DNA of 33,239 nucleotides from Prevotella sp. (GCA_031285625.1 JAITVV010000055.1:1-33239); one strand, 5' to 3'; shown: positions 8,273 to 25,977, numbered from the stretch's first letter. Notes: generated from the sequence alone by a model not told the origin. Made by a program: numbers and translations.

Positions 8273-9034
8273 CTACTTATTCAGTCGGTAGGTTATACCT
8301 ATTGTACCATATATATTATGCAATTTAAATTTAATTGGATTCGACCCTGAATAGAAGTAAGGCATTAACCCCCATGCTACATTTCCATAAAAACCTAATC
8401 TGTTAGTTAAACGGAATTCACCACCTCCGAGCAATCCGAAGTCATAATCTCTGGTATCCTTACTAAAGTCGAAAGTTGCGCCATCTCCTGTAATTTCCTG
8501 CTTTTGACCGGTTGGCGTATCTATTCGAATATATCCGTCATTTACACTTCCGTCAAATGTTGATGATAATGTTTTTGCAGCGTATATACCTAGCTTTACC
8601 TGCCATTTTTCGTTGAAGCTATATGTACCATACACTGGTACAGTAAGATAAGTCATATCAACATTTGTTTTGTTTTTTCCTACAAAGTACCCTGTTAACT
8701 TATCACCACCTTCTGCAAGAGTTACACTCGTATACATATATTTTACATGGTCAGTTACTCTCATTCCTTTCCAGTCGAGTGTTAACCCTGTGCCAACCCC
8801 CCATTTATCAGTAAGATTGTAAATTACATTTATACCTATCTGTGGGTTGATTTTAGGATTATAGCTATTTATTTCTCTCACCTCTGCAGGGATTGGTATC
8901 GGAGCAGTTGCACCGAAGTTAAATCCAAGAAGAAAGCTTACATCCAATGTTTTCTTATCTATATTCTGTGCAGAAATATTCGAAATAAAGAAGAAAGCAA
9001 AAAATAGGGCAATTGTATTATATTTTAATTTCAT
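8273..9034 (-). CDS. Outer-membrane beta-barrel (PorT/porin-like)
   Basis: Signal peptide, alternating beta pattern, YLTVPV, terminal GITYRL; adjacent to PCMD lipoprotein. Confidence 0.75.
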   Translation of the reverse strand: MKLKYNTIALFFAFFFISNISAQNIDKKTLDVSFLLGFNFGATAPIPIPAEVREINSYNPKINPQIGINVIYNLTDKWGVGTGLTLDWKGMRVTDHVKYMYTSVTLAEGGDKLTGYFVGKNKTNVDMTYLTVPVYGTYSFNEKWQVKLGIYAAKTLSSTFDGSVNDGYIRIDTPTGQKQEITGDGATFDFSKDTRDYDFGLLGGGEFRLTNRLGFYGNVAWGLMPYFYSGSNPIKFKLHNIYGTIGITYRLNK

Positions 9035-9041
9035 AATTCTA

Positions 9042-10148
9042 TTATTTTATAGGGTCACATATTATTTCCAGATCATCTGCTATCAATGTGCTTCCTACAG
9101 CTCCCTGATATTCGTTTCCGTCTTTACTTGATGATAATACTATTGTGAGCCGGTAATCGTTTTTATTGAAATCCAATCCTTCATTATACTTGAACGGAAT
9201 AGAGAATTTCGTAAATCCATTTATTGCCGGGGTTTCTTGCACATCTTTAGAATTTAAGGCCCATCTGGCTGTAGCTACAACTCTGTCAGATGTCATAATC
9301 GTTTCTCCATCCAGAAACTCTTCATTGGCCGGAGCTCCTTTAGTTACTTTAAACAGAGTGGCATACATAGACATTGAATCTGTTCTGTTTGGGATTACTT
9401 CTCCACTAGTACCTGTAAATATTTCTCCGGTTTTGTATTTATAATACCCATTGAACATAATTGGTTTACCATTTTCGATTGTATGAGCTTGTCCTAATTT
9501 CAGCGATTTCAGAGGATTAGACATGTTGGCTGAGAAAGCTCCTCTAAACAGATTTCCGGCAAATATAGGATAATCTTTACCAAAAATAGTAGTTCCTTTC
9601 ATTGTCTGTAGTATAGCTCCGTATTCCCCATCAACACAATCTGTTGTCTTATCTGTTGGGTATTGATCTATGACCAGGGCACCAGTACCAACTAAGATTG
9701 CCAAACCTGAATTTGCATTACTCCATAACAGATCGCTTAGTACCGGATAAGGAGCTCTCTCAGATCCCATTGTAGTCCAATCTTCGAAAGTGTGTTTCAG
9801 ACTTATTTTTGATGTAACAGTAACTGTATATTCCTTAAAATATTTGCCATCTTCAGATATAACTGTATATTTGACGTACTTCCCATTCGAAAAGTCTTGT
9901 GCTACACCTGATGCCGGTTGTACTGTAGCTCCCGGACTCACTTCTATGATTGGTACTATACGTGAATAGTCTGCTTTTTCTGAAACTATTAACTGAACGG
10001 TATGCTCAGATATAGCACGTGTGATATATGTATCATCATCAACGGACATATCTGTTATATCTGCTTCCATGTTAGGCGCCTCATCTTTTATACAAGAAGA
10101 AATTGTAAGCGCTAAAATGGCAATAAGAAAAAATATTCTAAATTTCAT
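9042..10148 (-). CDS. PCMD-domain lipoprotein
   Basis: Lipobox LTISSC, Ig-like segment (VSPGATVQP, YTVISED), C-terminal WSNAN / AGNLF / GYYKY / GSTLIADD. Confidence 0.78.
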   Translation of the reverse strand: MKFRIFFLIAILALTISSCIKDEAPNMEADITDMSVDDDTYITRAISEHTVQLIVSEKADYSRIVPIIEVSPGATVQPASGVAQDFSNGKYVKYTVISEDGKYFKEYTVTVTSKISLKHTFEDWTTMGSERAPYPVLSDLLWSNANSGLAILVGTGALVIDQYPTDKTTDCVDGEYGAILQTMKGTTIFGKDYPIFAGNLFRGAFSANMSNPLKSLKLGQAHTIENGKPIMFNGYYKYKTGEIFTGTSGEVIPNRTDSMSMYATLFKVTKGAPANEEFLDGETIMTSDRVVATARWALNSKDVQETPAINGFTKFSIPFKYNEGLDFNKNDYRLTIVLSSSKDGNEYQGAVGSTLIADDLEIICDPIK

Positions 10149-10179: not shown

Positions 10180-10304
10180 CATAATGATTTAGGGCAGAAG
10201 TTTACTAAATATGTAAATTAACAGAATTTAATATTTTGACTACTGCAATATCAGAATCCTATTTAACTCTCAAAAATAAGATTCATATTCAATGGAGATT
10301 AATT

Positions 10305-10529
10305 TTAATAATAAATCTCTGATGCGTTAAAATTCAGTTCTACATACAGATTGTCATTAATATTAGAGAACAGAATTTTGTTTTCTCTAGATAACCAACC
10401 CAAAGCAAGAAGTATTAACGAGTCTTTATAACTTGTTAATTCTCCGATTTCTCTTAACGATAATCTTCCTTTCTCTGATAGGCATCGCCAGATTGTTCCG
10501 GCATTTATACCAATATCTTTCTTCAACAT
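10305..10529 (-). CDS. Small winged-helix protein (DUF2582-like)
   Basis: IGINAGTIW...LALGWLSRENKI pattern. Confidence 0.78.
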   Translation of the reverse strand: MLKKDIGINAGTIWRCLSEKGRLSLREIGELTSYKDSLILLALGWLSRENKILFSNINDNLYVELNFNASEIYY

Positions 10530-10581
10530 AGTGTATCGGTTTTTATTAGGTTAAACAATAGATTGCATGTATTTACAACGT

Positions 10582-10788
10582 TTATTCATTCTCTTTATGT
10601 AGCAAAGTAGCAAAAAGACCACCAAGTATTGCCCCAAGGCAACAATTTACCCAACATTCTGCAGATAATGGATATGTTCCCCAATAGCAGGTAAAATAAT
10701 ACCAATTAAGAAAACCTGCTATTGCACCAATTATTATAGCAATTAAAACATTTCTGTTATTTGAAATAAAAACTATAATATCTTTCAT
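10582..10788 (-). CDS. Small membrane protein (DUF6132-like)
   Basis: Two TM helices (GAIAGF, GAILGGL) around a Cys-containing loop TCYWGTYPLS. Confidence 0.6.
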   Translation of the reverse strand: MKDIIVFISNNRNVLIAIIIGAIAGFLNWYYFTCYWGTYPLSAECWVNCCLGAILGGLFATLLHKENE

Positions 10789-10792
10789 CTTG

Positions 10793-11785
10793 TCAAATCA
10801 TTTGTGGATTCCAACCATAGTATCCATTTGAACCGGAGTCGGCTAATAATACAGGAGCTTCGACTTTTATCTTCGGATTTACAGCCTCGCGGATAGCCCT
10901 TGCAAACATATTATTAATTTTATGTCCGGGACAGTTGGCTACAACCTTTCCTTTAATGAACTTACCTACAAGAGCAAGATCCCCAATGATATCCAGTAAT
11001 TTATGTCTGGCTGGTTCGTTAGGGTAGAGTAGGGGCTTATTCATTATATAACCCAATTTTGAGGAATCTTTTCTCTTTACATGCATCATATCAGCAAGTT
11101 GGTCAAATTTTTCCTGTTCTATGGGTTTGTCATATATTACTATTGCGTTATCCAGATCGCCCCCTTTTACCAGATTATTGTTCAGTAGAGGTTCTATCTC
11201 TTTCACAAAAACAAATGTTCTGGCTGAAGCAAAGTCTCTTGTAAATTCGGATAAATTATTAAGAGTTGCATCCTGCCTTCTAAGAAAGGTTGAGTTGAAA
11301 GATATATGCGATTCTATACTGAAAGATTCATCCGGTATCAATACCATTGAAGATCCGGTTGTTTTGTCGATAACTTTTACTTTCTTACGCTTTATTGTAA
11401 TGTATTCTCTAACAGCATCTTGTTGTTGTGCTCCTACCTCTTTTATTTTACTCACATATAGGATAGAACTTCCATCCAGTATCGGAAATTCAGGACCGTT
11501 TACATCTATTAAGCAATTGTCTATCTCACATGCATATAATGCAGCCAAAGCATGTTCGACAGTACTTACATATACCCCATTAGCTGAGAGTACGGTTCCC
11601 CGCTGTGTTCCAGTTACATTTTCGGCTAAGGCGTCAATAATGGGTTGTCCGGATACATCTACTCTTCTGATTTTGTAACCATGATTTTCGGGAGCCGGAT
11701 TAAATTTTATAACAATGTCTAACCCTGTATGTAAGCCTTTACCCTCTAAGGTAAAACTGTTTTTTAAAGTTCGTTGATTAACCAT
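10793..11785 (-). CDS. lpxC: UDP-3-O-acyl-GlcNAc deacetylase, stand-alone (no FabZ domain)
   Basis: QRTL, GKGLHTG, TVEH, PILDGS, ARTF, GGDLDNA, HKLLD, GH motifs; ends at 330 aa. Confidence 0.9.
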   Translation of the reverse strand: MVNQRTLKNSFTLEGKGLHTGLDIVIKFNPAPENHGYKIRRVDVSGQPIIDALAENVTGTQRGTVLSANGVYVSTVEHALAALYACEIDNCLIDVNGPEFPILDGSSILYVSKIKEVGAQQQDAVREYITIKRKKVKVIDKTTGSSMVLIPDESFSIESHISFNSTFLRRQDATLNNLSEFTRDFASARTFVFVKEIEPLLNNNLVKGGDLDNAIVIYDKPIEQEKFDQLADMMHVKRKDSSKLGYIMNKPLLYPNEPARHKLLDIIGDLALVGKFIKGKVVANCPGHKINNMFARAIREAVNPKIKVEAPVLLADSGSNGYYGWNPQMI

Positions 11786-11809
11786 AATAATCTTTATTTA
11801 ATTTATATT

Positions 11810-12757
11810 TCAGGGAATTTTTATTAAGCAGGAACCTGTAGAATATCCACCTCCAAAAACAGAGAGACATATCAGGTTGCCTGTTGTAAATATCTCAATA
11901 TTCTGGGCAAAAACCAGTAACGCGCTGACAGAACCGGTATTTCCTAATTCCTCGATATTAGATAATATTTTATTTTCAGTGATATTCAACTGTTTTACTA
12001 CATTTTTTAATATTCTCATATTTGCTTGGTGACCAATGAAATAGGATAAATCATCCAGCGAATATCCATTTATTTCCACAATGTCTTTAGTCCCTTGGGC
12101 GATATAATTACATGCATACATGAATACATCTCTACCATAAGGCATTTTTATTCCTTCATCTTTCGGTTTCAAAGAAACAGCTTCGGGCCCCATGCCTATA
12201 TGTCCCAGGCCTTGTGTTGTAATATCCACTACTTGTGGATCTTTATCGGAATAAGACTTATTGGAGAAGAAATATGCTGTGGCTCCATCTCCCCACAAAT
12301 GGCCGGACATACAATCTGTATCGTCAGAATATGTAGAATTACGGTCTGCGCATATCAATAACGCTTTTTGTGCTAACTCTGAATGGAAAAATGAATATAT
12401 GATTTCCATTGCATTGATAGCAGAAGAACAGGCCGATGATATAAGAAAAACTTTTGCATTACTTATGTTATGCTCCCGTTGAATATAATGTCCTGTAGTA
12501 CCTACTGTATCTGAAGGAGAATATGATGCAAAAACAATTAAGTCAATATCTTGTATACTATATGGTAAATTGGCTAATGCATTTTTTACAGCTTCGTTAC
12601 ACATATAATCCATTGATTCGTTAGCAGATGCTCTCGAGCGGGTTAAAATTCCTGTCCGTTGAGCGATCCAATCGCTTGTCAATCCATTCACTTCCGTAAA
12701 ATAGTCATTTGTGATTCTTGTTTCGGGAATATAATATCCAATTGAATTAATAAACAT
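11810..12757 (-). CDS. FabH-like ketoacyl-ACP synthase III
   Basis: WIAQRTGI, SACSS (Cys), WGDGA, GHQAN (His), GNTGS (Asn), FGGG. Confidence 0.88.
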   Translation of the reverse strand: MFINSIGYYIPETRITNDYFTEVNGLTSDWIAQRTGILTRSRASANESMDYMCNEAVKNALANLPYSIQDIDLIVFASYSPSDTVGTTGHYIQREHNISNAKVFLISSACSSAINAMEIIYSFFHSELAQKALLICADRNSTYSDDTDCMSGHLWGDGATAYFFSNKSYSDKDPQVVDITTQGLGHIGMGPEAVSLKPKDEGIKMPYGRDVFMYACNYIAQGTKDIVEINGYSLDDLSYFIGHQANMRILKNVVKQLNITENKILSNIEELGNTGSVSALLVFAQNIEIFTTGNLICLSVFGGGYSTGSCLIKIP

Positions 12758-12780
12758 ACAGTGTGTTATTTTTACGGTTT

Positions 12781-13212
12781 TTATTTTGTTGCTCTTTTAT
12801 AAATAATTTCCAAGTTAGTGACCGGTACAACTCCCATAATCCGGTCTATTTCTTGTCCGTTTTTAAATAATAATGTACATGGGACGCCAGAAATATTATA
12901 CTTTTTATATATATCAGGATGCTCATTTACATTTACTCTGTAAAACTTTACATCGTCTCTCGATAGTTTGCTGATATTATGCATCATTTTGTTACATACT
13001 TCTGAATTTTCCTGATAAAATATAACAGAGATGATATCTGAAGATTCTATACCGGACATATCCTTCAATTCTTCAAAATGTATGTCTTCGCTCAGATTGT
13101 TAGAACTCCCGTTTACTGTAATAGGTCCCCATATATTGATTCCTAAAAACAATAAAGCCAATAAGAAGCAAAAATGCCATGTCTTGAATCGAAACTCTTT
13201 TAACTTTTTCAT
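12781..13212 (-). CDS. Membrane-anchored/exported thioredoxin-fold protein with SxxC site
   Basis: Hydrophobic N-terminus, FYQENSEVC at the WCxxC position, YNISGVP, FKNGQEIDRIMG. Confidence 0.78.
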   Translation of the reverse strand: MKKLKEFRFKTWHFCFLLALLFLGINIWGPITVNGSSNNLSEDIHFEELKDMSGIESSDIISVIFYQENSEVCNKMMHNISKLSRDDVKFYRVNVNEHPDIYKKYNISGVPCTLLFKNGQEIDRIMGVVPVTNLEIIYKRATK

Positions 13213-13214
13213 CT

Positions 13215-14114
13215 TTAAAAGAAATTATAGAAATCAGGTTTTATGCATATGCCTATTCTTACGTTCATGGCATACTTATCATAATCCAATAGACTCTCTC
13301 CATATCCTTGATAGTATCGGGCGAATAGATACTGATTAGATCTTTCAGACATTCTGAAGGCAGCCGTCAATGTAGTATTTACATTTCCCCATCCTTTTCT
13401 GGGATTGATATCTGCAGATAACCACCAACGGTGTTTGTCGCTTGTATAATTTACAGACACGAACCCTAAGCCTCTATAATCCAACAGGTCTTTATTATTC
13501 CCTCCGTCTACGTATGGAACCCAAACTTCTCCAGCAATATTAAATCTTGCATTGAAGTAATACTTCATGGATAGGCTCAAATAATTCCAACTTCGGGAGT
13601 CGTCTCCATCGCGTCCGTTTGATTCATGTTTTAATTGAACGAATGCCGCACCTACAACACGGTCCTTGTACAATATGTACTTACCTAATCCCAGTCCCGG
13701 ATTATAGTTTGTATCTTTAAACGGACTCGATTCGTCATAAATATTCCAGAACGATTTTTGAGTATATGTCAGATATGCAAATGTTTTGAATGGCAAAACA
13801 CTCTTTGTCAGTCTTTGTCTTATGCTTATCTGAAAGGATGCATCAGCAGTACTTCTGGTTATCTTTCTGTCAAGTGGAACTCCTGTAACAAAGTATGTGT
13901 CCCTGTATACGGCAAATGCTGGCATCCTATCTGCCATTTTTATAGCATCTCTTTCTGATATAACCAAATGTCTTGGTCTGAAGATACGCGGATCCTGCAT
14001 CGCACTGTCATATTGTTGACGGAGGCTATCATTATCTATATACATTAGATCAATCTGGGCAAATGCGGCTGATGATAGTACAGTAAATATTAAAAGTAAA
14101 TAGTTTCTCAACAT
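13215..14114 (-). CDS. pldA: Outer-membrane phospholipase A (OMPLA)
   Basis: FQIS, YTQKSFW, SSPFKDTNYNP, catalytic HESNG, SRSWN, GYGESLLDY. Confidence 0.9.
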   Translation of the reverse strand: MLRNYLLLIFTVLSSAAFAQIDLMYIDNDSLRQQYDSAMQDPRIFRPRHLVISERDAIKMADRMPAFAVYRDTYFVTGVPLDRKITRSTADASFQISIRQRLTKSVLPFKTFAYLTYTQKSFWNIYDESSPFKDTNYNPGLGLGKYILYKDRVVGAAFVQLKHESNGRDGDDSRSWNYLSLSMKYYFNARFNIAGEVWVPYVDGGNNKDLLDYRGLGFVSVNYTSDKHRWWLSADINPRKGWGNVNTTLTAAFRMSERSNQYLFARYYQGYGESLLDYDKYAMNVRIGICIKPDFYNFF

Positions 14115-14125
14115 ATTTTTTTCGA

Positions 14126-14428
14126 TTATCCAAAAATGAATTGGTTTATAAATTTGTCATCGTTCAGCTCATCTCTGCATTTTGTTTTAATGCCTATTTT
14201 ACTGAGAAGATTTTTTAAATCATTGTTTATAGAGTCTGTATAGATTATACTAACTCTTTTCAGTGCCATTAATAAAGAAAAATAGTTATTTTCTGTATTA
14301 TCCAGTTTCAGGCTTTCAACGCCTTTTACTTTATCGTTTTCGAGTTCAAAAATATTAACTGTGGTATTTCCTTGTATATCTCTACTTAGATTTCCTTTTT
14401 GTGTGAGTATTGCAATTATTTCCGCCAT
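14126..14428 (-). CDS. Hypothetical protein, possibly NifB/NifX-like fold
   Basis: 100 aa, tightly spaced in the cluster; beta/alpha pattern IIAIL...NIFELE...VSIIYT...LLSKIGIK; fold call is tentative. Confidence 0.55.
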   Translation of the reverse strand: MAEIIAILTQKGNLSRDIQGNTTVNIFELENDKVKGVESLKLDNTENNYFSLLMALKRVSIIYTDSINNDLKNLLSKIGIKTKCRDELNDDKFINQFIFG

Positions 14429-14473
14429 AATAGTTTTCGTGTTTTAAAAGTTAATACTCTAAATACCTAGTCA

Positions 14474-14489
14474 ATGAACAATCATTCAC
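14474..14489. promoter_or_regulatory. Second copy of putative TetR operator
   Basis: ATGAACAATCATTCAC, 14/16 identical to 15143-15158. Confidence 0.68.
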
Positions 14490-14507
14490 TTTTTTTGTTT
14501 AAAAAAG

Positions 14508-15122
14508 TTATGCTTTTATCAAACTATACAAATAATCCATCACTTCTTTTCTACGTTCCATGTCCTGAATTACATTTATAGCAAATGCTTCATCAGTACA
14601 ATTCTTTTCCGAAGATTCTTTTATACTTGTATTATTAAAGATGATTGCCATGATCTCTGTATCAATATCCTCTCTGACTTCTCCTATTTTTATACTGTTA
14701 TTGATTGCATTTTTCCAATTGCCGATCAATTTACTGTTTATAACTCTAAATCGATCAATAAAGTTGGGGTAATGCTTTGCTGCCTGTATCATCAGAGCTG
14801 TATAGTTCAGAAAAAATGTATGCGTTACTCCAGCCCGCGTGAAGGCATTGAGTATCAATTTTTGTCGTCTATACATTATTTCAATATACTCTGCGAGCGT
14901 CCTGTCTTTTTTTATATCCTGTAATATTTTATTAAATAATCTGAAAAAATATTCGTCTATGACAGCATTGAATAATTCTTCTTTATTTTTAAAATATCGA
15001 TACATGGCGCCGCGAGACATATTCAGCTCTTCTTGCAATACAGATATAGAGGCACTATCATAGCCTTTGTTCATAAAAACATCAAAGGCCCGCCTTAATA
15101 TATATTCTCTACTGTACTTCAT
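14508..15122 (-). CDS. TetR/AcrR family regulator
   Basis: N-terminal HTH AFDVFMNKGYDSASIS...SRGAMYRYFKNKEELF. Confidence 0.92.
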   Translation of the reverse strand: MKYSREYILRRAFDVFMNKGYDSASISVLQEELNMSRGAMYRYFKNKEELFNAVIDEYFFRLFNKILQDIKKDRTLAEYIEIMYRRQKLILNAFTRAGVTHTFFLNYTALMIQAAKHYPNFIDRFRVINSKLIGNWKNAINNSIKIGEVREDIDTEIMAIIFNNTSIKESSEKNCTDEAFAINVIQDMERRKEVMDYLYSLIKA

Positions 15123-15142
15123 ATGTTGCTTTATTTGTTAAC

Positions 15143-15158
15143 GTGAACAATCGTTCAC
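15143..15158. promoter_or_regulatory. Putative TetR operator palindrome
   Basis: GTGAAC-AATC-GTTCAC, 20 nt before the tetR ATG and next to a -7-like CACCTTTG (minus, 15163-15170). Confidence 0.72.
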
Positions 15159-15230
15159 AATGCAAAGGTGAATAAATTAATTAGAACGAAAGCAAAGAAT
15201 TATGTTAAAAAATAATTAAAAAATTTATAT

Positions 15231-15269
15231 AAATAAAGCATGTCAATTATAAGTTGACATGCTTTATTT
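15231..15269 (-). terminator. Intrinsic terminator after nrf/ccs operon
   Basis: AAATAAAGCATGTCAA-N7-TTGACATGCTTTATTT perfect 16-bp stem. Confidence 0.82.
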
Positions 15270-15290
15270 GTTTGTTATAATATAACCCTT

Positions 15291-16076
15291 TTAGTTGGAA
15301 TACACGTGTATACTATTTTGTGCCGCAGGCAGATAATTTACTCCAATCCAGGTGATCATTAATAATACGAATGCAATAGGAAGTGTCCATAAAGTGAATT
15401 TGGCATGGTAATTTTGCAAGCGCATATGTATGTATATCAGATAGGCGGCAGATGTGATAAATGCCCACGTTTCTTTAGGATCCCAAGACCAGTAATGCCC
15501 CCATGCTTCTTTTGCCCAGACGGCTCCCATTAACATACCAAGTATGAGAAAGCCAAAACCTATATAGACAATATTATCCATAAATTTGTATAGTTCTATA
15601 TCCGCCTTGTTTTTACCTAATTTATTAAGCTGCATAAAGGAGGCGATAGTAGCAGCACCAAGCATAGAGTAGGAGAGTATATAAACAGTTACATGTGGTA
15701 CAAACCAGTAGCTTTGCAGTGCAGGCATCAGGTTTGTAGAGTGTATCTCCGGCTTGAAAATGTTAATGCATACAAATACACAAGCAACTAATGCGGTGAA
15801 AGATAGCAGCCACTTATACTTCCAATGCTTGTATGTAAAGAAACCAATTGTAGCCAAAAAGAAAGAATACCAAAGGCGGGTTTCGCCAATCGTCCTGAGG
15901 GGAGGTCGTTCCTGCCCAATCCAGAGGCCAACGATAAATGCTCCGAATATAAGTATGCCACCTATCATCAGCAAATCAATAATGATAGTTTTTTTTACCT
16001 TATATATAAGTGCTCCGGCGGCTAACCAACATAATATAGCAGGTATTGCAAACCAAAGATATTCATTCCACGTCAT
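15291..16076 (-). CDS. ccsA: Cytochrome c biogenesis protein CcsA (system II heme lyase)
   Basis: WWD domain WAKEAWGHYWSWDPKETW, PALQSYWFVPHV, C-terminal SIHVY. Confidence 0.9.
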   Translation of the reverse strand: MTWNEYLWFAIPAILCWLAAGALIYKVKKTIIIDLLMIGGILIFGAFIVGLWIGQERPPLRTIGETRLWYSFFLATIGFFTYKHWKYKWLLSFTALVACVFVCINIFKPEIHSTNLMPALQSYWFVPHVTVYILSYSMLGAATIASFMQLNKLGKNKADIELYKFMDNIVYIGFGFLILGMLMGAVWAKEAWGHYWSWDPKETWAFITSAAYLIYIHMRLQNYHAKFTLWTLPIAFVLLMITWIGVNYLPAAQNSIHVYSN

Positions 16077-17325
16077 ACTCTTTTTTCCTTTTTTTGTTTC
16101 CTGACCATAATAAGCAGATAGATCCTAGGGCTAACATCGCTATACCAATATAAACAGGATATAACCAAGGATCATATACAAGTTCGAAACTACTATACAT
16201 CGAGGCTTTTCCTGCCTGATTATCATATCCATATTGGTAGATCATCCAATTATCCAGTTTTAGGGGTTTATTTACTTCCAACTGTGTTTGAGCTTCATGT
16301 CCATCTTGTGTGACAACAATAATGTCCGACATAAACCTTTTAGGCTCAGCTTGAGTCATTACAATACAGTATTGCGAGTCTATCGGCAGCGTCATATATA
16401 GTTGAGACATACTGCCTCCGCAAACCCATCCTTGGTGAATTTCCCCATTTTTCTTATTACTAATCTTTATCCTTGCTGCCGGAGAAGAACCTGGCATAGG
16501 CATGTGGTGATAAGTGCTATCACTATTTCTGATAGCCTCATGTATATACTCTTCTAATGATATATCCCAATCCCAAAGTTTACCTTCCGGCCGTTTTTCA
16601 TCTATCTGAAAATAATCTGGCTTGGATATTGGTTGCGCATCTCCAGTATTTCTATCTATAATGGCTAATTTAGGAGGATATTCCTCCATTACAAAATCGT
16701 TGAGCTGGATAGCAATGGGTAGTTCCAGTACATCTCCGTTATCATTATATACCCGCCATTCCACACCTCCTTCTTGTACATGCATCACATAGCGCTTCAT
16801 ATCAGATGTGCCGAGTCCGGCAGCAAATAGAAGAATCCACAGACCAATGTGATTGAAGTAAAAAGCGTAATAGCGAATATTAAAAGCGATGAGACGACGC
16901 ATAATGAGAGCACCCAATGATAATAATGTGAGAAAATACACCAAAATAAATGGCCATGAACTGGTTACTTGCTTAAATCCTAGCCGTGTAAGTATACTAT
17001 GATCATGCGGATCCAATTTCAGCATCTGAGGTGTCAATCCCATTACCAAGCCTAGCACAAGCAGCCCTCCGATAAGGGATACGGCAAATGGTACTCCTGA
17101 AAACCATTGATAAATAGGATTTTTCCGGGCAAATGAAAATAGTACGAGGAATACTATAATACAGCCTCCTATTATAAGATTGACCGGGGCTCCGAATAAT
17201 AGAAAATTAAACTTGCCTACAAGCCATTGTAATATGAATCCTATAATTATTGTGCCAAATATGATAGCTAGACTTTCTTTGTATCGCCAGGGAAATTGCC
17301 ACATCTGATGTTTTACATTATTCAT
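16063..17325 (-). CDS. Cytochrome c biogenesis protein ResB/CcsB
   Basis: TM helices, NHIGLW His, VNKPL, DPWLYPVYIG; overlaps ccsA start. Confidence 0.82.
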   Translation of the reverse strand: MNNVKHQMWQFPWRYKESLAIIFGTIIIGFILQWLVGKFNFLLFGAPVNLIIGGCIIVFLVLFSFARKNPIYQWFSGVPFAVSLIGGLLVLGLVMGLTPQMLKLDPHDHSILTRLGFKQVTSSWPFILVYFLTLLSLGALIMRRLIAFNIRYYAFYFNHIGLWILLFAAGLGTSDMKRYVMHVQEGGVEWRVYNDNGDVLELPIAIQLNDFVMEEYPPKLAIIDRNTGDAQPISKPDYFQIDEKRPEGKLWDWDISLEEYIHEAIRNSDSTYHHMPMPGSSPAARIKISNKKNGEIHQGWVCGGSMSQLYMTLPIDSQYCIVMTQAEPKRFMSDIIVVTQDGHEAQTQLEVNKPLKLDNWMIYQYGYDNQAGKASMYSSFELVYDPWLYPVYIGIAMLALGSICLLWSGNKKRKKEYDVE

Positions 17326-17339
17326 TTTATCTGATTAAA

Positions 17340-17377
17340 AAGAGTGTCCGAAAGATAATAATTCATTGGACACTCTT
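17340..17377 (-). terminator. Intra-operon stem-loop/terminator after nrfA
   Basis: AAGAGTGTCC...GGACACTCTT 10-bp stem ending in a U run on the minus strand. Confidence 0.62.
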
Positions 17378-17413
17378 AGCATTACTTTGTGTTATCTACT
17401 AATAGAAAAGTTA

Positions 17414-18913
17414 TTATAAACTAGCTACTATTCGTCCGTTTTCTTTGGCTTTCTTCAACCATTCAGGGACAACTGTTTTGATCCATTTGTCTTTATTATC
17501 CTGTAATGTTTTCATATCTAGTCCAATATATTCCTGTGCTTTGTCTTTAGAAGAAATATCCGGCATCTGAACATCTGTTACGCCATGTGCATATAATACT
17601 TTCTGTAATTCTATTTGCGCTTGCAGTGTTCTGTCTAAGCTATGGGCAAGTATTCTTTGAGTCTCAATAGGAGCATGGAAAGAAGCTCCATGTGATGCAA
17701 CTGAGAAATCCCAACGCCATTGTGCCTGACGGATAAGTTTAAGAGATGCATTCATTTCTTTTTCTGTAGCACCTTTATCCCAGGCTGTTTTTGCCATAAT
17801 ATGAGCTTTCGACAATTCTTTTTCTATACGGTCGCGAATCTCTAACGCTTTATCCTGACGCTCGTATACATAATTTCTCAGATTTTCTTCGCTGTCGCGA
17901 TGACAAACCTGGCATGTGTTAGCTATGTTTTTGAGTGGACTCATAATCTGATGGTTTGAGTACTTAATACCTCCTTCAGCTACATAAGGCATATGACAGT
18001 CTGCACATGATAATCCTCTCTGAGCATGTGTGCCCATCATGAATGTTTCATAGTCAGGATGCTGAGCTTTTAGCATTGGAGCTCTACTTAGTTTGTGAGT
18101 CCAGTCTGTAAATTCTATTTCGTCATAGTATTTTTCCATATCTTCCATAGTCATACCTTTATCCCAAGGGAATGTCAGATACTTACCATCACCTTTGAAG
18201 TAATATTCTACGTGGCACTGTGCACAAACTAATGTACGCATTTCCTGAGGAGTCGCATTTGCAATATCTTTACCCTGACGTTCGAATGCCTGAATCAATG
18301 CCGGTTGAGTGATAGTAAGGTTCATCGTTTTAGGATCGTGGCAGTTGGCACATCCAATCGGATTTACTATTTCGCTACCAAAAGCACCCCATTTAGTTTT
18401 GTAGAATTCTTCAATTCCTACTTCGTGCATCATGCGTGGTACATCCGGACTCTTACAAGCCCAGCATGTCGCTGGTTGTGGCCCGTCAGTGTCAGTTTCA
18501 GGACATCCTGTACGCAATGTATTTCTATTGTCTTCCAGAGCATGCATATGGCCTCTTGGTGCTTTATAATCCTGAGCAAATGCATATCCTGCCCATAGAA
18601 CAACCATCTCCGGACGGGAAGCAAGAACATCTTCTTCAACGTTCCCTAGATGTTTGCTTTTGAAATCCATATCGGCTGTCTTCTTCCATGTGTTATATTC
18701 TCTTGGATAGTTTTCACCCCAAAGTTCATTTCTAGGTTCCAGTCCTTCTATATCCCGTACCTTGTTATTGTAGATAGAGGCTATTTCAGCTCTACGCTCG
18801 GTAACAGATGCTGCAAGCAATCCTAATAAAAATACACAAATCATGACTGCGGCAAAAATACCCCATCCAATGATTGGCTTACGTTTTATAGCTTCTGATA
18901 ATTTCTTAAACAT
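17414..18913 (-). CDS. nrfA: Ammonia-forming cytochrome c552 nitrite reductase
   Basis: CWACK (CxxCK) plus CANCH, CAQCH, CADCH, CQVCH; KAQHPDYE. Confidence 0.97.
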   Translation of the reverse strand: MFKKLSEAIKRKPIIGWGIFAAVMICVFLLGLLAASVTERRAEIASIYNNKVRDIEGLEPRNELWGENYPREYNTWKKTADMDFKSKHLGNVEEDVLASRPEMVVLWAGYAFAQDYKAPRGHMHALEDNRNTLRTGCPETDTDGPQPATCWACKSPDVPRMMHEVGIEEFYKTKWGAFGSEIVNPIGCANCHDPKTMNLTITQPALIQAFERQGKDIANATPQEMRTLVCAQCHVEYYFKGDGKYLTFPWDKGMTMEDMEKYYDEIEFTDWTHKLSRAPMLKAQHPDYETFMMGTHAQRGLSCADCHMPYVAEGGIKYSNHQIMSPLKNIANTCQVCHRDSEENLRNYVYERQDKALEIRDRIEKELSKAHIMAKTAWDKGATEKEMNASLKLIRQAQWRWDFSVASHGASFHAPIETQRILAHSLDRTLQAQIELQKVLYAHGVTDVQMPDISSKDKAQEYIGLDMKTLQDNKDKWIKTVVPEWLKKAKENGRIVASL

Positions 18914-18934
18914 AATCTATCTTATTTTTAGTTG

Positions 18935-19513
18935 TTATTTTTTCATTTTTTCTTTCAGCCATTCCGGTACAGGGGAGGCTGGTAATGGTACTATGGCATT
19001 TGGAGATTCCGAGAGGCTACTCACCTTAGAGTGTGGAATCTGCGTATGACAATCCCAACATGCTTTGCCTTCACCTTTTTTTGTGTCTGCATATTGTATC
19101 ATACCTGTTTTTACAAATTCTGTATTCAACTGGGTATGACAACGTATACAGTTGTTCATAATCACCTCATAGCTCTCTTCACGTGGTCTGATCACCTGAG
19201 GTTCACCTTTTACTGTAAATACCGCAGCATGGTATAATCCGTCCTTAGCCTTGAATGCATATTTACTTACCACATTGTCCTGAGGCACATGGCAATCGTT
19301 ACAGGTGGTCCATTGTGCATGAGAACTATGATTCCATGTCTGATAATATGGAGTCATAATATGACAGTTGATACAGGCTGCCGGATCATCTGATAGATAT
19401 GAATGTGCCCTAGACATATACACAGTATATGCTCCAAGTCCGACGATTACTCCTCCTACAATAAAAATAGGGAGGATAAATTGCCTGGGTATATGACTTA
19501 GAAGTTTTTTCAT
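18935..19513 (-). CDS. nrfH: Cytochrome c nitrite reductase small subunit
   Basis: N-terminal TM; CINCH, CNDCH, CIRCH, CWDCH. Confidence 0.95.
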   Translation of the reverse strand: MKKLLSHIPRQFILPIFIVGGVIVGLGAYTVYMSRAHSYLSDDPAACINCHIMTPYYQTWNHSSHAQWTTCNDCHVPQDNVVSKYAFKAKDGLYHAAVFTVKGEPQVIRPREESYEVIMNNCIRCHTQLNTEFVKTGMIQYADTKKGEGKACWDCHTQIPHSKVSSLSESPNAIVPLPASPVPEWLKEKMKK

Positions 19514-19562
19514 TATGATTTGTTTTTCAGTTGATTGCTGGAATAAATATATAAATATTTTT

Positions 19563-20720
19563 TTAAAATCCTACTTGGAATTGAGCTATTACAACATTCG
19601 AATTATCTGCTCCCCACTTCCTTGAATAATCAGAAAGGGTATAGTTGAGTTGTATACGGCACATCGGTGCAAAGTAGTAGTTGAATCCTACTGTATAATC
19701 GATAACTTCACTGTTGAGATCTTTATTCTTATTGTAGTAATCTACTCTGGCCAAAGCATTTAATTTTTTAGGTACCAGATAATATTGTGCTATACCATAT
19801 ACGCCCTCTTTGCTGATTCCGCCATCGTTAGCTGTAATCCATTCTGCTCGGGCATTAAACCTGTCTGATTTATAGTCGGCGCTAACAACCCAACGGTTGC
19901 GTACATGATCTGCTGCATCTTCGTTACCTATTTGATAAGTGGCTTGTCCGAAGTAAGCTCCGCCACCTATGCGAAGGCCTTTTGCCGGTTGAATCATCAG
20001 TGTTCCGGCGAAGTCTTTAGTATTATTTTTTTCATTTGAGGTTACACCCATTCCTTGGAATACGCCGGCAGAATATTGTATAAGGCTATACCCCCCGGTC
20101 ATAGGAGCTAATTCTCCTGATATCTGAACTCCTGCATCACGTCCAAAATTATTTTTACCATTCTGCAGGTTTTGTACGTCGCTATCGTATCCGGCAAGAT
20201 TAGATATTGTTCTGGAATATGCAGCTGTTTCCAATGTTGCAGGAACATATAAGCTTTCCAGTGTAAATGGAACTTTAAACTGGCCTAGTTTTAAATTAAA
20301 TTCTCTGGCTGCTGTCCATTCTCCCCAGAATTCCTGTACAGACGGGTTTACTAGTTCTAATAAGAACCCATACCTGAAAGAATCATTGAATTTACCATTC
20401 ACGGAGAGGAATAAATTTTTAGCCCTGAAGTCGTGATTAACGCCACTGGCATTTTTTACATCAGAATACCTGTACCATACCTGACCGTTTCCTCCAAATT
20501 GCATATATGGAGTATTGAATGCATTTCTTACTTTTTCTACTGTTTGGCTTACCGAGGATTTTTGTTCTACCTTTTTAGAATCTTTTTTGATTTCGTCTGC
20601 CTCAGATTGTGTGAGTATATTTTTTTCTACAAGCTTTTTTAGAAGCTCACTGTCTGAATCCTGAGCATATGCGATGCTACAAGTAAAGCAAATCATTAAG
20701 GCTATTAGAATTCTTTTCAT
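19563..20720 (-). CDS. Outer-membrane porin (OprO/OprP-like)
   Basis: Signal MKRILIAL...AYAQ (ATG 20720), LVEKNILTQSEA helix, GQFKVPF, GRDAG, terminal QVGF. Confidence 0.75.
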   Translation of the reverse strand: MKRILIALMICFTCSIAYAQDSDSELLKKLVEKNILTQSEADEIKKDSKKVEQKSSVSQTVEKVRNAFNTPYMQFGGNGQVWYRYSDVKNASGVNHDFRAKNLFLSVNGKFNDSFRYGFLLELVNPSVQEFWGEWTAAREFNLKLGQFKVPFTLESLYVPATLETAAYSRTISNLAGYDSDVQNLQNGKNNFGRDAGVQISGELAPMTGGYSLIQYSAGVFQGMGVTSNEKNNTKDFAGTLMIQPAKGLRIGGGAYFGQATYQIGNEDAADHVRNRWVVSADYKSDRFNARAEWITANDGGISKEGVYGIAQYYLVPKKLNALARVDYYNKNKDLNSEVIDYTVGFNYYFAPMCRIQLNYTLSDYSRKWGADNSNVVIAQFQVGF

Positions 20721-20826
20721 AGTTTTAGTTTTTAGTTGTATGTCAAATATTTGCATTGTCAGGAAGACAATAAATATTTAATATTTTTTATCATAATACA
20801 AATAAATGATATATCGCATAAAAAAA

Positions 20827-20898: not shown

Positions 20899-21600
20899 TT
20901 AGAAAAAATGCTTATTCAGAAATTCCATAAATCTGGCTTTGTAGGATTCTGATATAGGAATGTATTCTTTTCCAAAAACAATACAATTCCGTTCTATTGT
21001 CTTGATCTTATCCAGATTAACAATAAAAGAACGATGTACTCTCATAAAGATTTTACCCGGAAGCTTCTCTTCAAGTGATTGCATACTCATAAGGGAACTG
21101 ATTGGTTCTTTCTGACTTTCGAGATGAAATCTTACATAATCTTTCTGATTTTCAATATAAAGAATATTATCAAAATCAACTTTCTCCATCCTATAGCCCG
21201 ATTTAATGAAGATACTGGTTGTGGATTGGCCTGTATCCGTTAGTTTGAACCATTCCAATGCTTTATTTGCAGCTTGTAGGAAATCTGTATAGTTTATAGG
21301 TTTTAACAAATAATCTAATGCGTTGAGGCGAAAACTTTCTATTGCATACTGGTCATATGCAGTAGTGAAGATAATGCGTGTATTGGATGAGACCATTTTA
21401 GAGAATTCCAGACCATTTATCTGGGGCATGTTTATATCAAGAAATAAGACATCGATATGGTTATCATTGATTGTATTTATAGCCGATAAAGCATTATCAA
21501 ATGTTCCAGCCAATTCAAGAAAAGGAGTTTTCTGTACATAAGACTTCAATAAGTCTATAGCTAACGGTTCGTCATCTATGATTATACATTTTAATGTCAT
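20899..21600 (-). CDS. LytTR family response regulator
   Basis: DDEPLA, FLDINMP, FTTAYD, YLLKP, FMRVHRSFIVN. Confidence 0.95.
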   Translation of the reverse strand: MTLKCIIIDDEPLAIDLLKSYVQKTPFLELAGTFDNALSAINTINDNHIDVLFLDINMPQINGLEFSKMVSSNTRIIFTTAYDQYAIESFRLNALDYLLKPINYTDFLQAANKALEWFKLTDTGQSTTSIFIKSGYRMEKVDFDNILYIENQKDYVRFHLESQKEPISSLMSMQSLEEKLPGKIFMRVHRSFIVNLDKIKTIERNCIVFGKEYIPISESYKARFMEFLNKHFF

Positions 21601-22673
21601 ACAGTTGCTTCGTTTTTATTAAAATCGATCCTAAGTAAAGTAAAAAAACTGTTTGTGCGTTTCTCTACTGTAAACTCATATTTATCCAGATATAATAATT
21701 CCAAGCGTTTAGATAGGTTTGCAAGACCTATCCCTGAATTACGTGCCTCCATATTTTCTTCTTTTTCAACCAGACTGTTTTCTACAGTGCATAACACACC
21801 TTTTCCGGGATCAACCAGTATAGTTATATCTATAAAGCTATTTTCACCATTATTTATACCATGTTTGAATGCATTTTCGATAAGTGTGATAAACATGAGG
21901 GATGCTATAAGATCTTTGCTCCCTGCATCATCTATAGTAATATTTATTTTGACAGAAGAGCTAAGGCGGAGCTTCATTAAGTCGATATAGTTTTTCGTAA
22001 ATTCGAGCTCTTTATCCATCGGGACAAACTTCTGATCATTATCATACATCACATAACGTAAAAGGTTGCTTAACCGATGTACTGCATTTTGCGCTCTATC
22101 CTGATCTATGGCTATTAGTGAATATATATTATTCAGTGTATTGAAAAGAAAGTGAGGGTTAAGCTGACTTCTTAAATTTCGCAGATCGGCTTCTAATTGT
22201 ACACTTTTTACCTTCTCGAAATTAATTGAATCCCTATACCATCGTATTGTCATTTTTATTGCAACACTGAGGCCAATAACAAAAATGATGGACATGTAAT
22301 CTATTAAAAACCGCATAAATGGAGGCCCTTTCGGATGTGGGCCATCCATTTTGAAACGTCTTTCGCGCATTTCCTGTATATTGGGGAGAATAGACATCAT
22401 CATTTCCGATATAACAGCTTGTAGAGCTACCAATCCGGCTATGAGAATTATATTTATAAGAATATAAAGTACTATTTTACGCGTAAATAAGAACTTCTCT
22501 ATCAAATAGAAATAATTAAAATAGAAAAGAATGGCAAATATAACTATGCGTATAAAATAATTATAAAAAGGTTTATTATCTAGTATACCTTCTCTTGACA
22601 TAAGATATGTGGGGACTATCAGTACAATAGCCCAAATAAGTATATGCGGAAATATTTTTATAAAGTTTTTCAT
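21597..22673 (-). CDS. LytS/YehU-type sensor histidine kinase
   Basis: TM helices, SQLNPHFLFNTLNN, ENAFKHG, GIGLAN. Confidence 0.94.
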   Translation of the reverse strand: MKNFIKIFPHILIWAIVLIVPTYLMSREGILDNKPFYNYFIRIVIFAILFYFNYFYLIEKFLFTRKIVLYILINIILIAGLVALQAVISEMMMSILPNIQEMRERRFKMDGPHPKGPPFMRFLIDYMSIIFVIGLSVAIKMTIRWYRDSINFEKVKSVQLEADLRNLRSQLNPHFLFNTLNNIYSLIAIDQDRAQNAVHRLSNLLRYVMYDNDQKFVPMDKELEFTKNYIDLMKLRLSSSVKINITIDDAGSKDLIASLMFITLIENAFKHGINNGENSFIDITILVDPGKGVLCTVENSLVEKEENMEARNSGIGLANLSKRLELLYLDKYEFTVEKRTNSFFTLLRIDFNKNEATV

Positions 22674-22674
22674 C

Positions 22675-23895
22675 TTATTCGTATCTGAGGGCCTCTATAG
22701 GGTCGAGGTTCGACGCCTTTTTAGCAGGGTACCATCCGAAAAATATACCTGTGGCCGTACATACAATAAAAGACAAAGCTATAGTATAAACTTGAATATC
22801 TATAGGCCAAGCCAAAATATTTTTTACAATATATGCACTGCTAATGCCTAAAATTACGCCAATAATACCTCCTGTAATACTCAGGATAATAGCTTCTATA
22901 AGGAATTGCATAAGTATATCCACGCCTTTGGCTCCGATAGACATGCGCAGGCCGATCTCGCGTGTACGTTCGGTAACTGATACATACATGATATTCATAA
23001 TCCCTATACCTCCAACAAATAAAGATATGCCAGCAATACATGCAAGAAGAATAGTCATCATATCCGTTGTGGAGCTCATCATCGATATCAACTCTTTTTG
23101 CGAACGAACATTAAAATCGTCTTCATCATTAGGCCCTATCTTATGACGTTGCCGAAGGATATTTTCTATGCTGGTTATAGCATCTTCGGTAGCATCTTCG
23201 CTTACTGCTGATGCTGATATCGATTGAATATAAGTTATTGCCAGTATACGCTTCTGCACTGTTGTATAAGGTGCTATTATCAGGTCATCCTGGTCCATTC
23301 CCATTGTGTTGTCACCCTTTGATTCCAGTACACCGATTACCTTAAACGGTATTTTGTTGAAACGAATAGTTTGCCCGATAGGGTCTTCTCCGTTTGTAAA
23401 GAGATTGTCTACCACTGTTTGTCCGATAACACATACTTTTGCTGAAGTTTTAACTTCTGCTTCTGTAAACATTTCTCCTTGCGCTATCGCATATTTTCGT
23501 ATTTCGAGATATGATGGATTAACTCCATATACGGAAGTGGGTGAATTATTTGCTCCAAATATGACTTGTCCCGATGATTGTACTTCAGGCGAAGCAACAG
23601 TTATATATTCAGCTTGTTCTATAATAGCTTCATAGTCCTCAAGCTTAAGTGTCTGCATGCTGGATGCACTTTGGCGCACACCTCCAAACTGACCTGTTCC
23701 GGGACGGATATTGATCATATTCGAACCCATAGTGGATATCTGGTCTTGGATGCTCTTTTTCGATCCCTGCCCGATAGCCAACATTGTAATAACAGCAGCA
23801 ACACCAATAATAATACCCAGCATGGTAAGAAATCCTCTGAATTTATTACCACTTAATGCCCGCAGTGCTATTTTGAATAAGTTTACTATATTCAT
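22675..23895 (-). CDS. MacB/FtsX-type ABC permease
   Basis: LTMLGIIIGV, GGIGIMNIM, ERTREIG, LDPIEALRYE. Confidence 0.93.
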   Translation of the reverse strand: MNIVNLFKIALRALSGNKFRGFLTMLGIIIGVAAVITMLAIGQGSKKSIQDQISTMGSNMINIRPGTGQFGGVRQSASSMQTLKLEDYEAIIEQAEYITVASPEVQSSGQVIFGANNSPTSVYGVNPSYLEIRKYAIAQGEMFTEAEVKTSAKVCVIGQTVVDNLFTNGEDPIGQTIRFNKIPFKVIGVLESKGDNTMGMDQDDLIIAPYTTVQKRILAITYIQSISASAVSEDATEDAITSIENILRQRHKIGPNDEDDFNVRSQKELISMMSSTTDMMTILLACIAGISLFVGGIGIMNIMYVSVTERTREIGLRMSIGAKGVDILMQFLIEAIILSITGGIIGVILGISSAYIVKNILAWPIDIQVYTIALSFIVCTATGIFFGWYPAKKASNLDPIEALRYE

Positions 23896-23897
23896 AA

Positions 23898-24638
23898 TTA
23901 TTCTTCCTTTGGTAATTTAGCCAAATAGTCTTTGGCCGACTGAATATTTGCATTTAGTGTATCTTCTTTGATCCGCCCGTCGCGAATAACGATATTGCGA
24001 CTGCTAAATGCTGATATCTCAGGATTGTGAGTGACGAAGATAATAGTGCGTCCTTCTTTATGAAGCCGTTGCATCAATGATAAGATTTCGAAAGATGTAC
24101 GTGTATCCAGATTACCGGTAGCTTCATCAGCCAGAATAATGACAGGCTCGTTTACTAAAGCCCTGGCAATAGCTACACGTTGCATCTGCCCGCCTGACAT
24201 TTGATTTGACTTATGATTCAACCTGTCACCCAAGCCAACGTCTTCCAGCGCTTTTATCGCTCTTTGATGCCGTTCTTTAGAAGAGACATCCGGATTGTAC
24301 ATCAATGGTAATTCTACATTCTCTACGGCTGTTGTTTTGGCTAATAGATTGTATGATTGAAAGATAAATCCTATTTTTCTATTGCGTAGAGTTGCCCTGT
24401 CATTCTTACCCATTTTCCTTACAGAGGTATTATCAAGATAATATTCTCCTTCGGTAGGGGTATCGAGACATCCCAGTATATTTAGTAATGTAGATTTTCC
24501 GGAACCGCTGGTACCCATAATGGTAACAAATTCTCCCTCGTGGATGCTGAAATCGACACCTCGTAGAGCATGAACAGTTTCATCACCAACTATATAATCG
24601 CGTTTCAGATTTTCTACCCTTATTATTTCCTTAACCAT
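23898..24638 (-). CDS. ABC ATP-binding protein (MacB/LolD type)
   Basis: [24 protein letters not shown]. Confidence 0.95.
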
Positions 24639-24745
24639 GAAATTCTTCTTTGATTCTTAGTCTTACAGGAAAATATATGATGTGCAGAGATATCCATAGA
24701 ACAAACTTATTAACCTATCAATATTTTCCTGAAGACATAAGATTT

Positions 24746-25966: not shown

Positions 25967-25977
25967 TTCTCTTTTTC

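Follow-up and report, generated by a model that had tools for sequence, protein, structure and literature searches.

LpxC sets the flux into lipopolysaccharide (LPS) and is a drug target, and in Proteobacteria one enzyme is tuned by proteolysis. To our knowledge, what has been learned about LpxC control is almost all proteobacterial, and the regulation of the fused LpxC/FabZ enzyme of Bacteroidota is poorly known. Here, we analyzed a stretch of 33,239 nucleotides from Prevotella sp. (GCA_031285625.1, JAITVV010000055.1:1-33239; hereafter, the window), which carries a TetR-headed cluster of eight genes encoding, among others, a second LpxC that lacks the FabZ domain (LpxC2), an outer membrane phospholipase A (PldA, or OMPLA) and a FabH-like ketoacyl-acyl carrier protein (ACP) synthase III (KAS III). 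We predict that the cluster acts as a module under repressor control to reinforce the outer membrane, with the spare FabZ-free LpxC2 as its effector, and assign this reading a probability of about 0.5.

In Escherichia coli, fatty acids derived from PldA stabilize LpxC and raise LpxC levels and LPS, according to the available parts of two reports (PMC5874903, PMC13170283). That PldA-fatty acid/acyl-CoA-LpxC circuit (FtsH/LapB/YejM) is comparable in that OMPLA activity is tied to more LpxC and LPS and in that it responds to lost lipid asymmetry, whereas, as these excerpts describe it, a single LpxC is stabilized against proteolysis and pldA is unlinked. In the window, a second LpxC and a second PldA share one predicted repressor-controlled unit; any coupling would be transcriptional, and a signal from PldA products is not implied. 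In Klebsiella, the accessible part of another report describes activation of lpxC by RamA together with efflux genes (PMC4310594). RamA/MarA-type regulons are similar to the LpxC2 loci in that AraC-family regulators adjoin 8 of the 38 loci scored here, but RamA, as presented in that part, acts on a single housekeeping lpxC from afar, whereas a dedicated extra LpxC is found here inside or beside a pump or regulator locus.

The LpxC/FabZ fusion itself has been described in Bacteroidetes (PMC3087551, accessible part). LpxC2 retains the Bacteroidales-type insertion before the HKxxD motif, but is without the FabZ half, falls in a separate clade and is accessory. Francisella LpxD1 and LpxD2 are conditionally expressed paralogues of a lipid A enzyme. 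LpxP is also mentioned among lipid A enzymes in the part of the source available to us (PMC3087551). The LpxP/LpxL and LpxD1/LpxD2 pairs resemble the present case in that an additional version of a lipid A enzyme is retained for use under certain circumstances, but those copies change the acyl chain that is added, whereas LpxC2 duplicates the flux-controlling step and has no sign of altered specificity. Searches of the full-text literature (subscription-only papers were outside the scope) returned no description of a second or accessory LpxC in Bacteroidetes or Dysgonomonas, nor one found via DUF6132, DUF2582 or PG0541, in line with an earlier model annotation of the window from its sequence alone (the sequence-only reading), which did not recognize the cluster as a described operon. 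Hence, the component families are known, while the accessory LpxC clade, the operator-controlled operon and the companion membrane pair appear to be new.

The accessory LpxC and the genes that surround it

LpxC2 matched the LpxC profiles above their cut-offs (PF03331, 266.4 bits, cut-off 27; TIGR00325, 210.2 bits, cut-off 187.25) and missed that of the bifunctional LpxC/FabZ family (NF009667, 405.5 versus 465 bits), for which only profile positions 2-311 of 464 were matched. Its TVEH, HKLLD and GH motifs align with the catalytic positions of Pseudomonas aeruginosa LpxC, where the Zn-ligand and catalytic roles are presumably held by the E-H of TVEH, H-K-x-x-D, the second D and the catalytic H. 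On contig C16 of the same genome, lpxD and lpxA flank a gene for an LpxC/FabZ fusion of 461 aa (NF009667, 711.8 bits), and LpxC2 is 60% identical to the LpxC half of this fusion. A canonical FabH is encoded on contig C5 (TIGR00747, 379.8 bits, cut-off 292.1; NF006829, 411.9 bits), and another PldA on contig C16 is 47.5% identical to the window PldA (tblastn). The sequence-only reading was thus right to expect the housekeeping copies in separate loci, and the PldA, FabH-like protein and LpxC of the window are extra copies.

When 26 unfused LpxC sequences were placed in a tree with 20 fused ones, all unfused sequences fell on one side of a branch (ultrafast bootstrap 100, SH-aLRT 99). The unfused LpxC2 forms a single clade, which we interpret as a single origin. 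LpxC2 sequences are 55-65% identical to housekeeping LpxC, with class-defining positions nearly all conserved. N248M and P276F are the only positions that separate 26 unfused from 19 fused sequences (consensus of at least 85%), and both lie outside the set of catalytic residues that we checked. Because only these two positions distinguish the classes, we expect LpxC2 to have ordinary LpxC chemistry. A second LpxC copy was found in 32 of 101 sampled genomes of the family and, among the second copies listed, open frames were ~305-380 aa long compared with ~460 aa for the fused form. Outside the family, when 300 further genomes were sampled across the order, a second LpxC was present in 1 of 297 genomes (L058, 3512-9310, the sole such copy in that sample). 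One LpxC2 gene (G024:C58:40507-41466, locus L065) contains an in-frame TAA, possibly a pseudogene or a sequencing error, at a locus that is without the PldA, thioredoxin-like and DUF6132-like genes.

To compare gene content, we scored 38 LpxC2 loci from 35 genomes, after four loci duplicating named records were dropped; this is a sample in which related genomes are not independent. The constant element across loci is the unfused accessory LpxC, and the eight-gene order of the window does not extend beyond the genus. Scanning a single genome for each species yielded six loci, five from Dysgonomonas and one from Prevotella sp. 10(H) (L008, genome G090), which the genome collection places in the genus of the window. 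All six shared seven genes, arranged identically behind tetR, and five had the DUF2582 gene. The locus is therefore not a chance assembly. An additional Kdo-kinase-like gene lies between the thioredoxin-like and FabH-like genes in L006-L010, whereas the window and L005 are without it. Reduced forms occur at the same site, following the nrf/ccs genes, in the same genus (TetR-PldA-Trx-FabH-LpxC-DUF6132-winged helix-turn-helix [wHTH], and in L075 TetR-PldA-wHTH only), and a bare TetR-LpxC pair (L068) and a TetR-small-FabH-LpxC arrangement (L069) are found elsewhere.

The genes most often found with LpxC2 encode the thioredoxin-like and DUF6132-like proteins. These two strictly co-occur (both at 26 loci, neither at 12), and LpxC2 sits between them at 25 of the 26. 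TetR orthologues (59-81% identity) head 16/38 loci; the FabH-like gene was found at 14/38, always upstream of LpxC2 on the same strand (14/14), the 100-aa protein at 13/38, always directly after tetR, and PldA at 13/38. Less common were the Kdo-kinase-like gene (9/38, in the same block in 9/9), the DUF2582 gene (8/38) and a patatin-like lipase (1/38). The variable add-ons (PldA, FabH-like, Kdo-kinase-like and patatin) are all envelope-lipid genes. The gene-order conservation that the sequence-only reading had proposed as a check was found within the genus, but outside a handful of species the loci have a mosaic composition. The eight genes of the window do not form an invariant set, given forms that range from TetR-LpxC alone to TetR-PldA-wHTH without LpxC, and the pldA, fabH and lpxC trio is not the core, which consists instead of LpxC and the thioredoxin-like/DUF6132-like pair.

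Such variability could mean that the genes have no joint function, and that the site is a hot spot where paralogues of envelope genes pile up behind tetR, each acting or decaying alone. Gene number at the post-nrf/ccs site ranges from 3 to 8 among close relatives, one LpxC2 (in G024) has the in-frame TAA, and Dysgonomonas genomes carry 1-5 PldA copies, all as expected from such accumulation. We nonetheless consider this explanation improbable in view of the tight gaps (2-79 nt) and intact frames, the conserved candidate operators described below, the presence of the genes in RNA-library contigs, the single functional theme common to all add-ons and the co-occurrence of the thioredoxin-like/DUF6132-like pair (26/26).

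The same mosaic bears on the suggestion, also made in the sequence-only reading, of a pathway to an unusual acyl-glucosamine lipid. Under this alternative, an unusual acyl chain would come from the FabH-like enzyme, and LpxC2 would act as the deacetylase of an N-acetylglucosamine lipid other than the lipid A precursor, giving a specialized glucosamine lipid. The FabH-like protein is indeed divergent (29% identical to the canonical FabH of the genome and below the FabH cut-offs), and its constant position relative to LpxC2, with the Kdo-kinase-like gene in the same block, would suit a shared pathway. However, 24 of the 38 loci are without a FabH-like gene, none of the 38 has an acyltransferase, glycosyltransferase or flippase in the module, and LpxC2 is as close to housekeeping LpxC as noted above, with two diagnostic changes. 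Because the composition is mosaic and no transferase is included, a new glucosamine-lipid pathway is, in our view, very unlikely.

A dedicated regulator (TetR, AraC or LytTR) or a co-oriented resistance-nodulation-division (RND) pump adjoins LpxC2 at 34/38 loci, one of which combines AraC with an RND pump. The recurrent association with multidrug RND pumps, with AraC and LytTR regulators and with mobile elements was not noted in the sequence-only reading. At 10/38 loci, RND pumps are found directly upstream of LpxC2; these pumps score best as the multidrug type rather than CusA/CzcA. A link to metal stress, raised by a Zn/Cd-type P-type ATPase ~3 kb from LpxC2 in L012 and L013, was dropped on account of this pump type. 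In one genus (L021, L022, L026-L028, L073 and L074), the genes preceding LpxC2 encode an RND pump of the multidrug type and a 97-aa "transporter-associated" protein of the PG0541 family, which Pfam sees as P-II-like; the PG0541-family protein was found at 7/38 loci (7 of the 10 RND loci). A LytTR two-component pair was found at 1/38 loci, directly upstream of LpxC2 in L072.

Two LpxC2 loci are on mobile elements. The first (L020, 316-11646), in a genome of the window's genus, contains an RND pump, an outer-membrane factor and the thioredoxin-like, Kdo-kinase-like, FabH-like, LpxC2, DUF6132-like and patatin-like lipase genes, in this order, with RteC and two HTH_17 genes at its end, and it looks like the cargo of a CTnDOT-type conjugative transposon. 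The second (L058), from another family, has LpxC2 beside MobC_2, DUF3408, a divergent AraC gene, an EamA exporter, a metallo-beta-lactamase (MBL)-fold hydrolase and rubrerythrin. In a quick tree, LpxC2 branching departed from genus, with L020 pairing with L016 from another genus.

These observations raise the possibility of target duplication, whereby LpxC2 (and, where present, the FabH-like protein) would duplicate essential drug targets in spare or less sensitive form, induced together with exporters against environmental inhibitors of LpxC or of fatty-acid initiation or, more broadly, against LPS-directed antimicrobials. The pumps directly upstream at 10/38 loci, the EamA exporter that LpxC2 follows in L058, the conjugative or mobilizable carriage of two loci, the branching out of step with genus and the dedicated TetR or AraC regulators, which are typical of resistance cassettes, are all consistent with this. 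Yet LpxC2 is just two diagnostic substitutions away from housekeeping LpxC, neither at a checked catalytic position, and PldA, the Kdo-kinase-like protein and patatin are not drug targets. We also know of no natural LpxC inhibitor, and no pump immediately adjoins the window locus, where the closest efflux genes (22675-27312) are ~7.5 kb off. Overall, we regard target duplication as unlikely.

TetR, its candidate operators and the companion proteins

The TetR-family regulator was identified by its N-terminal helix-turn-helix (PF00440, 50.3 bits, cut-off 24), and two candidate operators, O1 and O2, lie on either side of its gene (Table 1). O1 falls within the 168 nt that precede tetR and immediately follows a box that contains TTTG and is -7-like; the consensus of the Bacteroidetes -7 element is TAnnTTTG. 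A TGAAC-N4-GTTCA palindrome occurs 24-38 nt before the tetR start codon in 18/18 TetR-type loci (9/9 in the first set and 9/9 further loci), and 16/18 (9/9 and 7/9, respectively) have the post-tetR palindrome 16-77 nt after tetR, in one or two copies per spacer. The operator-bearing loci include the minimal TetR-LpxC locus (L068), and the palindromes flanking tetR are almost the sole copies within loci of 8-15 kb. Outside the window, the pattern (with at most one mismatch) was found at three places in the genome, two of them inside open reading frames (ORFs). A wider TetR regulon was considered based on a palindrome 36 nt upstream of an Omp85-family gene (contig C81) and was rejected, as this palindrome is absent from 9/9 orthologous upstream regions and is attributable to chance. 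Conserved candidate operators on both sides of tetR therefore lend comparative backing to the TetR control proposed in the sequence-only reading. Most likely, TetR would repress its own promoter and a second promoter for the downstream genes, or act as a roadblock at the latter position.

The thioredoxin-like protein (PF00085, 36.9 bits) has an N-terminal hydrophobic anchor (topology judged by eye). Where thioredoxins have C-G-x-C, the window protein has S-E-V-C, as placed by alignment to solved C-G-H-C domains. No C-x-x-C was found among its homologues, with S-x-x-C in 17/18 and neither residue in the remaining one. E. coli CnoX/YbbN is likewise an SxxC thioredoxin-fold protein, and in both the first active-site cysteine is replaced by serine, implying no classical disulfide reductase activity; the window protein differs in being small (143 aa), membrane anchored, without a TPR domain and paired with a degenerate DUF6132 protein. 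That 68-aa partner missed the DUF6132 cut-off (PF19628, 21.3 versus 23.2 bits) and has two membrane helices (judged by eye), with a loop reading C-Y-W-G-T-Y-P versus G-C-S-S-G-T-C-P in the canonical copy. Elsewhere in the same genome, genes for a MarR regulator, a WCGPC-bearing lipoprotein thioredoxin and a protein similar to DUF6132 lie in a row on contig C80 (L036, 489-1677), this DUF6132-like copy, with G-C-S-S-G-T-C-P, likewise being below the cut-off (19 bits). The window pair appears to be a duplicate that has degenerated, with one motif cysteine lost from each partner, and the redox-competent-looking C80 pair is likely the ancestral type of the pair flanking LpxC2. A complex prediction for the thioredoxin-like and DUF6132-like proteins scored 0.14 (mark 0.32), which is evidence neither way.

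A more specific role can be envisaged for this pair, in which LpxC2 would be the payload of a mobile, inducible cassette shielding Bacteroidales from compounds directed at LPS synthesis or the outer leaflet, and the SxxC and DUF6132-like proteins would sense the periplasmic side and tether or gate the cytoplasmic LpxC2. The pair would then be a functional counterpart, unrelated in sequence, of the YejM/LapB control of LpxC in Proteobacteria. We rate this proposal as rather unlikely.

Among the other products, PldA (PF02253, 140.4 bits, cut-off 27) has HESNG in its translation and does not reach the E. coli-type equivalog (NF008031, 87.4 versus 369 bits). PldA is multi-copy in the window's genus (1-5 matches per genome in the family sample), and with this query it was not found in 41 of the 101 family-sample genomes, including all sampled members of several genera. 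The FabH-like protein contains PF08545 and PF08541 domains, and its Cys-His-Asn triad (ACS, HQAN and GNT) aligns with solved FabH. The 100-aa protein is possibly NifX/Nitro_FeMo-Co-like: it has a weak NCBIfam match to the C-terminal part of MrpORP (E = 3.5e-4) and an Atlas lead (0.86, 199 shared features) in the NifX/Nitro_FeMo-Co direction, but no Pfam match to Nitro_FeMo-Co (PF02579), and its family profile gave only chance-level matches to PDB sequences (E of 0.12 or worse). Membership of the PG0541 family, which neighbors RND pumps, was considered for this protein and rejected, as the two were unrelated in comparison. The last gene encodes a DUF2582 winged-helix protein (PF10771, 73.4 bits).

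Layout and surroundings of the window locus

Consistent with the sequence-only reading of eight co-oriented genes with gaps of 2-79 nt, the ORF listing gave eight co-oriented minus-strand ORFs spanning 10305-15122, all with intact reading frames and separated, from tetR onward, by 79, 11, 2, 23, 24, 4 and 52 nt. Translation and alignment to solved structures also upheld its observation that the catalytic motifs of OMPLA, KAS III and LpxC are intact. The "strong terminator" that it placed upstream exists as a hairpin, but with only 4 G-C pairs in the stem it is long rather than strong. This hairpin is predicted to close the nrf/ccs operon in the manner of a terminator and to mark where the module is bounded upstream.

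The nrfA-resB-ccsA-tetR junction is retained in L075, another genome of the window's genus. Downstream, synteny of the PCMD and OMP_b-brl_2 genes with the module extends to L005, L059 and L061 and not to other relatives; these genes were not counted in the unit.

Table 1. Positions of the predicted module, its candidate control elements and the flanking genes in the window
Feature	Coordinates	Strand	Description
MacAB-TolC-like exporter	20899-27312	-	Outer-membrane efflux protein, HlyD-type adaptor, ABC ATPase, MacB/FtsX permease, then His_kinase/LytTR pair (own regulator); ~6-12 kb from module
Nitrite-ammonification unit	15291-20756	-	Complete unit, immediately upstream of module; O/P-type porin, nrfH (NapC/NirT family), nrfA (cytochrome c552), resB/ccsA cytochrome c assembly
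Palindromic hairpin	15229-15271	.	Between ccsA and tetR; 20-pair stem, 3-nt loop, T-runs on both strands
Candidate operator O1	15143-15159	-	TGTGAACGATTGTTCAC; perfect palindrome, about 21-37 nt upstream of tetR start
TetR-family regulator	14508-15122	-	204 aa; PF00440
Candidate operator O2	14475-14489	-	GTGAATGATTGTTCA; in 79-nt spacer after tetR
100-aa protein	14126-14428	-	Cytoplasmic; no Pfam family
PldA (OMPLA)	13215-14114	-	299 aa; PF02253
Thioredoxin-like protein	12781-13212	-	143 aa; PF00085
FabH-like KAS III	11810-12757	-	315 aa; ACP_syn_III and ACP_syn_III_C
LpxC without FabZ domain (LpxC2)	10793-11785	-	330 aa; PF03331
DUF6132-like membrane protein	10582-10788	-	68 aa; PF19628, below cut-off
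DUF2582 winged-helix protein	10305-10529	-	74 aa; PF10771; last gene of unit
PCMD-domain lipoprotein and OMP_b-brl_2 porin-like protein	8273-10148	-	156-nt gap downstream of module

Predicted function and significance

The FabZ-freed LpxC2, the private regulator found nearly everywhere, the multidrug pumps and the envelope-lipid add-ons lead us to favor a stress-inducible function over a fixed pathway, with reinforcement of the outer membrane through LpxC2 as the preferred reading. Under this reading, in the absence of an inducer TetR would occupy the palindromes on either side of tetR and keep the unit low, and a membrane-active or lipid-derived signal would free it. LpxC2 would then supply extra capacity at the committed step in making lipid A, uncoupled from FabZ, such that the shared 3-hydroxyacyl-ACP pool would shift toward LPS (the housekeeping LpxC of Bacteroidota being fused 1:1 to FabZ). 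In the Dysgonomonas version, a second OMPLA would clear phospholipid mislocalized in the outer leaflet, and the divergent KAS III would feed or re-prime acyl chains. The SxxC thioredoxin-like and DUF6132-like proteins would form a degenerate pair, probably without redox activity, that accompanies LpxC2 and may tether or control it. Gene content, paralogy, the single LpxC2 clade, the conserved candidate operators and the recurrent association with dedicated regulators and efflux pumps are observed here, whereas what LpxC2 catalyzes, which way the lipids shift, what induces the unit and what each small protein does are inferred.

Several observations weigh against this reading. The ligand domain of TetR, which the sequence-only reading took to be lipid-sensing, resembles no characterized lipid sensor, its matches being confined to the DNA-binding part. 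The operator pattern has 6 matches genome-wide versus 5 for a reversed control; as it is no commoner than the control, the case for operators rests on position and conservation. PldA and LpxC2 are each found without the other (L075, and the 25 of 38 LpxC2 loci without PldA), hence coupling between the two is not obligatory. The FabH-like protein falls under both NCBIfam FabH cut-offs (TIGR00747, 174.2 versus 292.1 bits; NF006829, 212.7 versus 249 bits). The carriage of LpxC2 on mobile elements beside exporters (L020 and L058) is explained no less well by a resistance determinant than by a homeostasis device, and the observations that favor our reading would also suit a resistance cassette working through target dosage. 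Lastly, Logan contigs from one RNA-seq library covered 10264-13661, 13678-14892 and 14913-15255 and bridged all seven internal junctions, which speaks for the reading, but such contigs show presence in an RNA library rather than one transcript, and DNA carry-over is possible. The library derives from a near-identical strain (~1% differences), and shorter pieces were found in a second run of the same study and in a small metatranscriptome. Contigs of one run (X4) stop at 10264 and 15255, near where the unit is predicted to end, whereas a DNA-like run reads through; as this comes from one study, it was not used as evidence of transcript ends.

Taken together, the set-up suggests an undescribed inducible route by which Bacteroidota could raise LPS synthesis under envelope stress. 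If this is true, an unfused, individually regulated LpxC clade would represent a different solution to the control of LPS flux, wired at the gene level, and two small uncharacterized membrane proteins would become candidate LpxC partners. It would also mean that certain Bacteroidales, from the gut or associated with insects, already possess a means of tolerating LpxC- or LPS-directed compounds.

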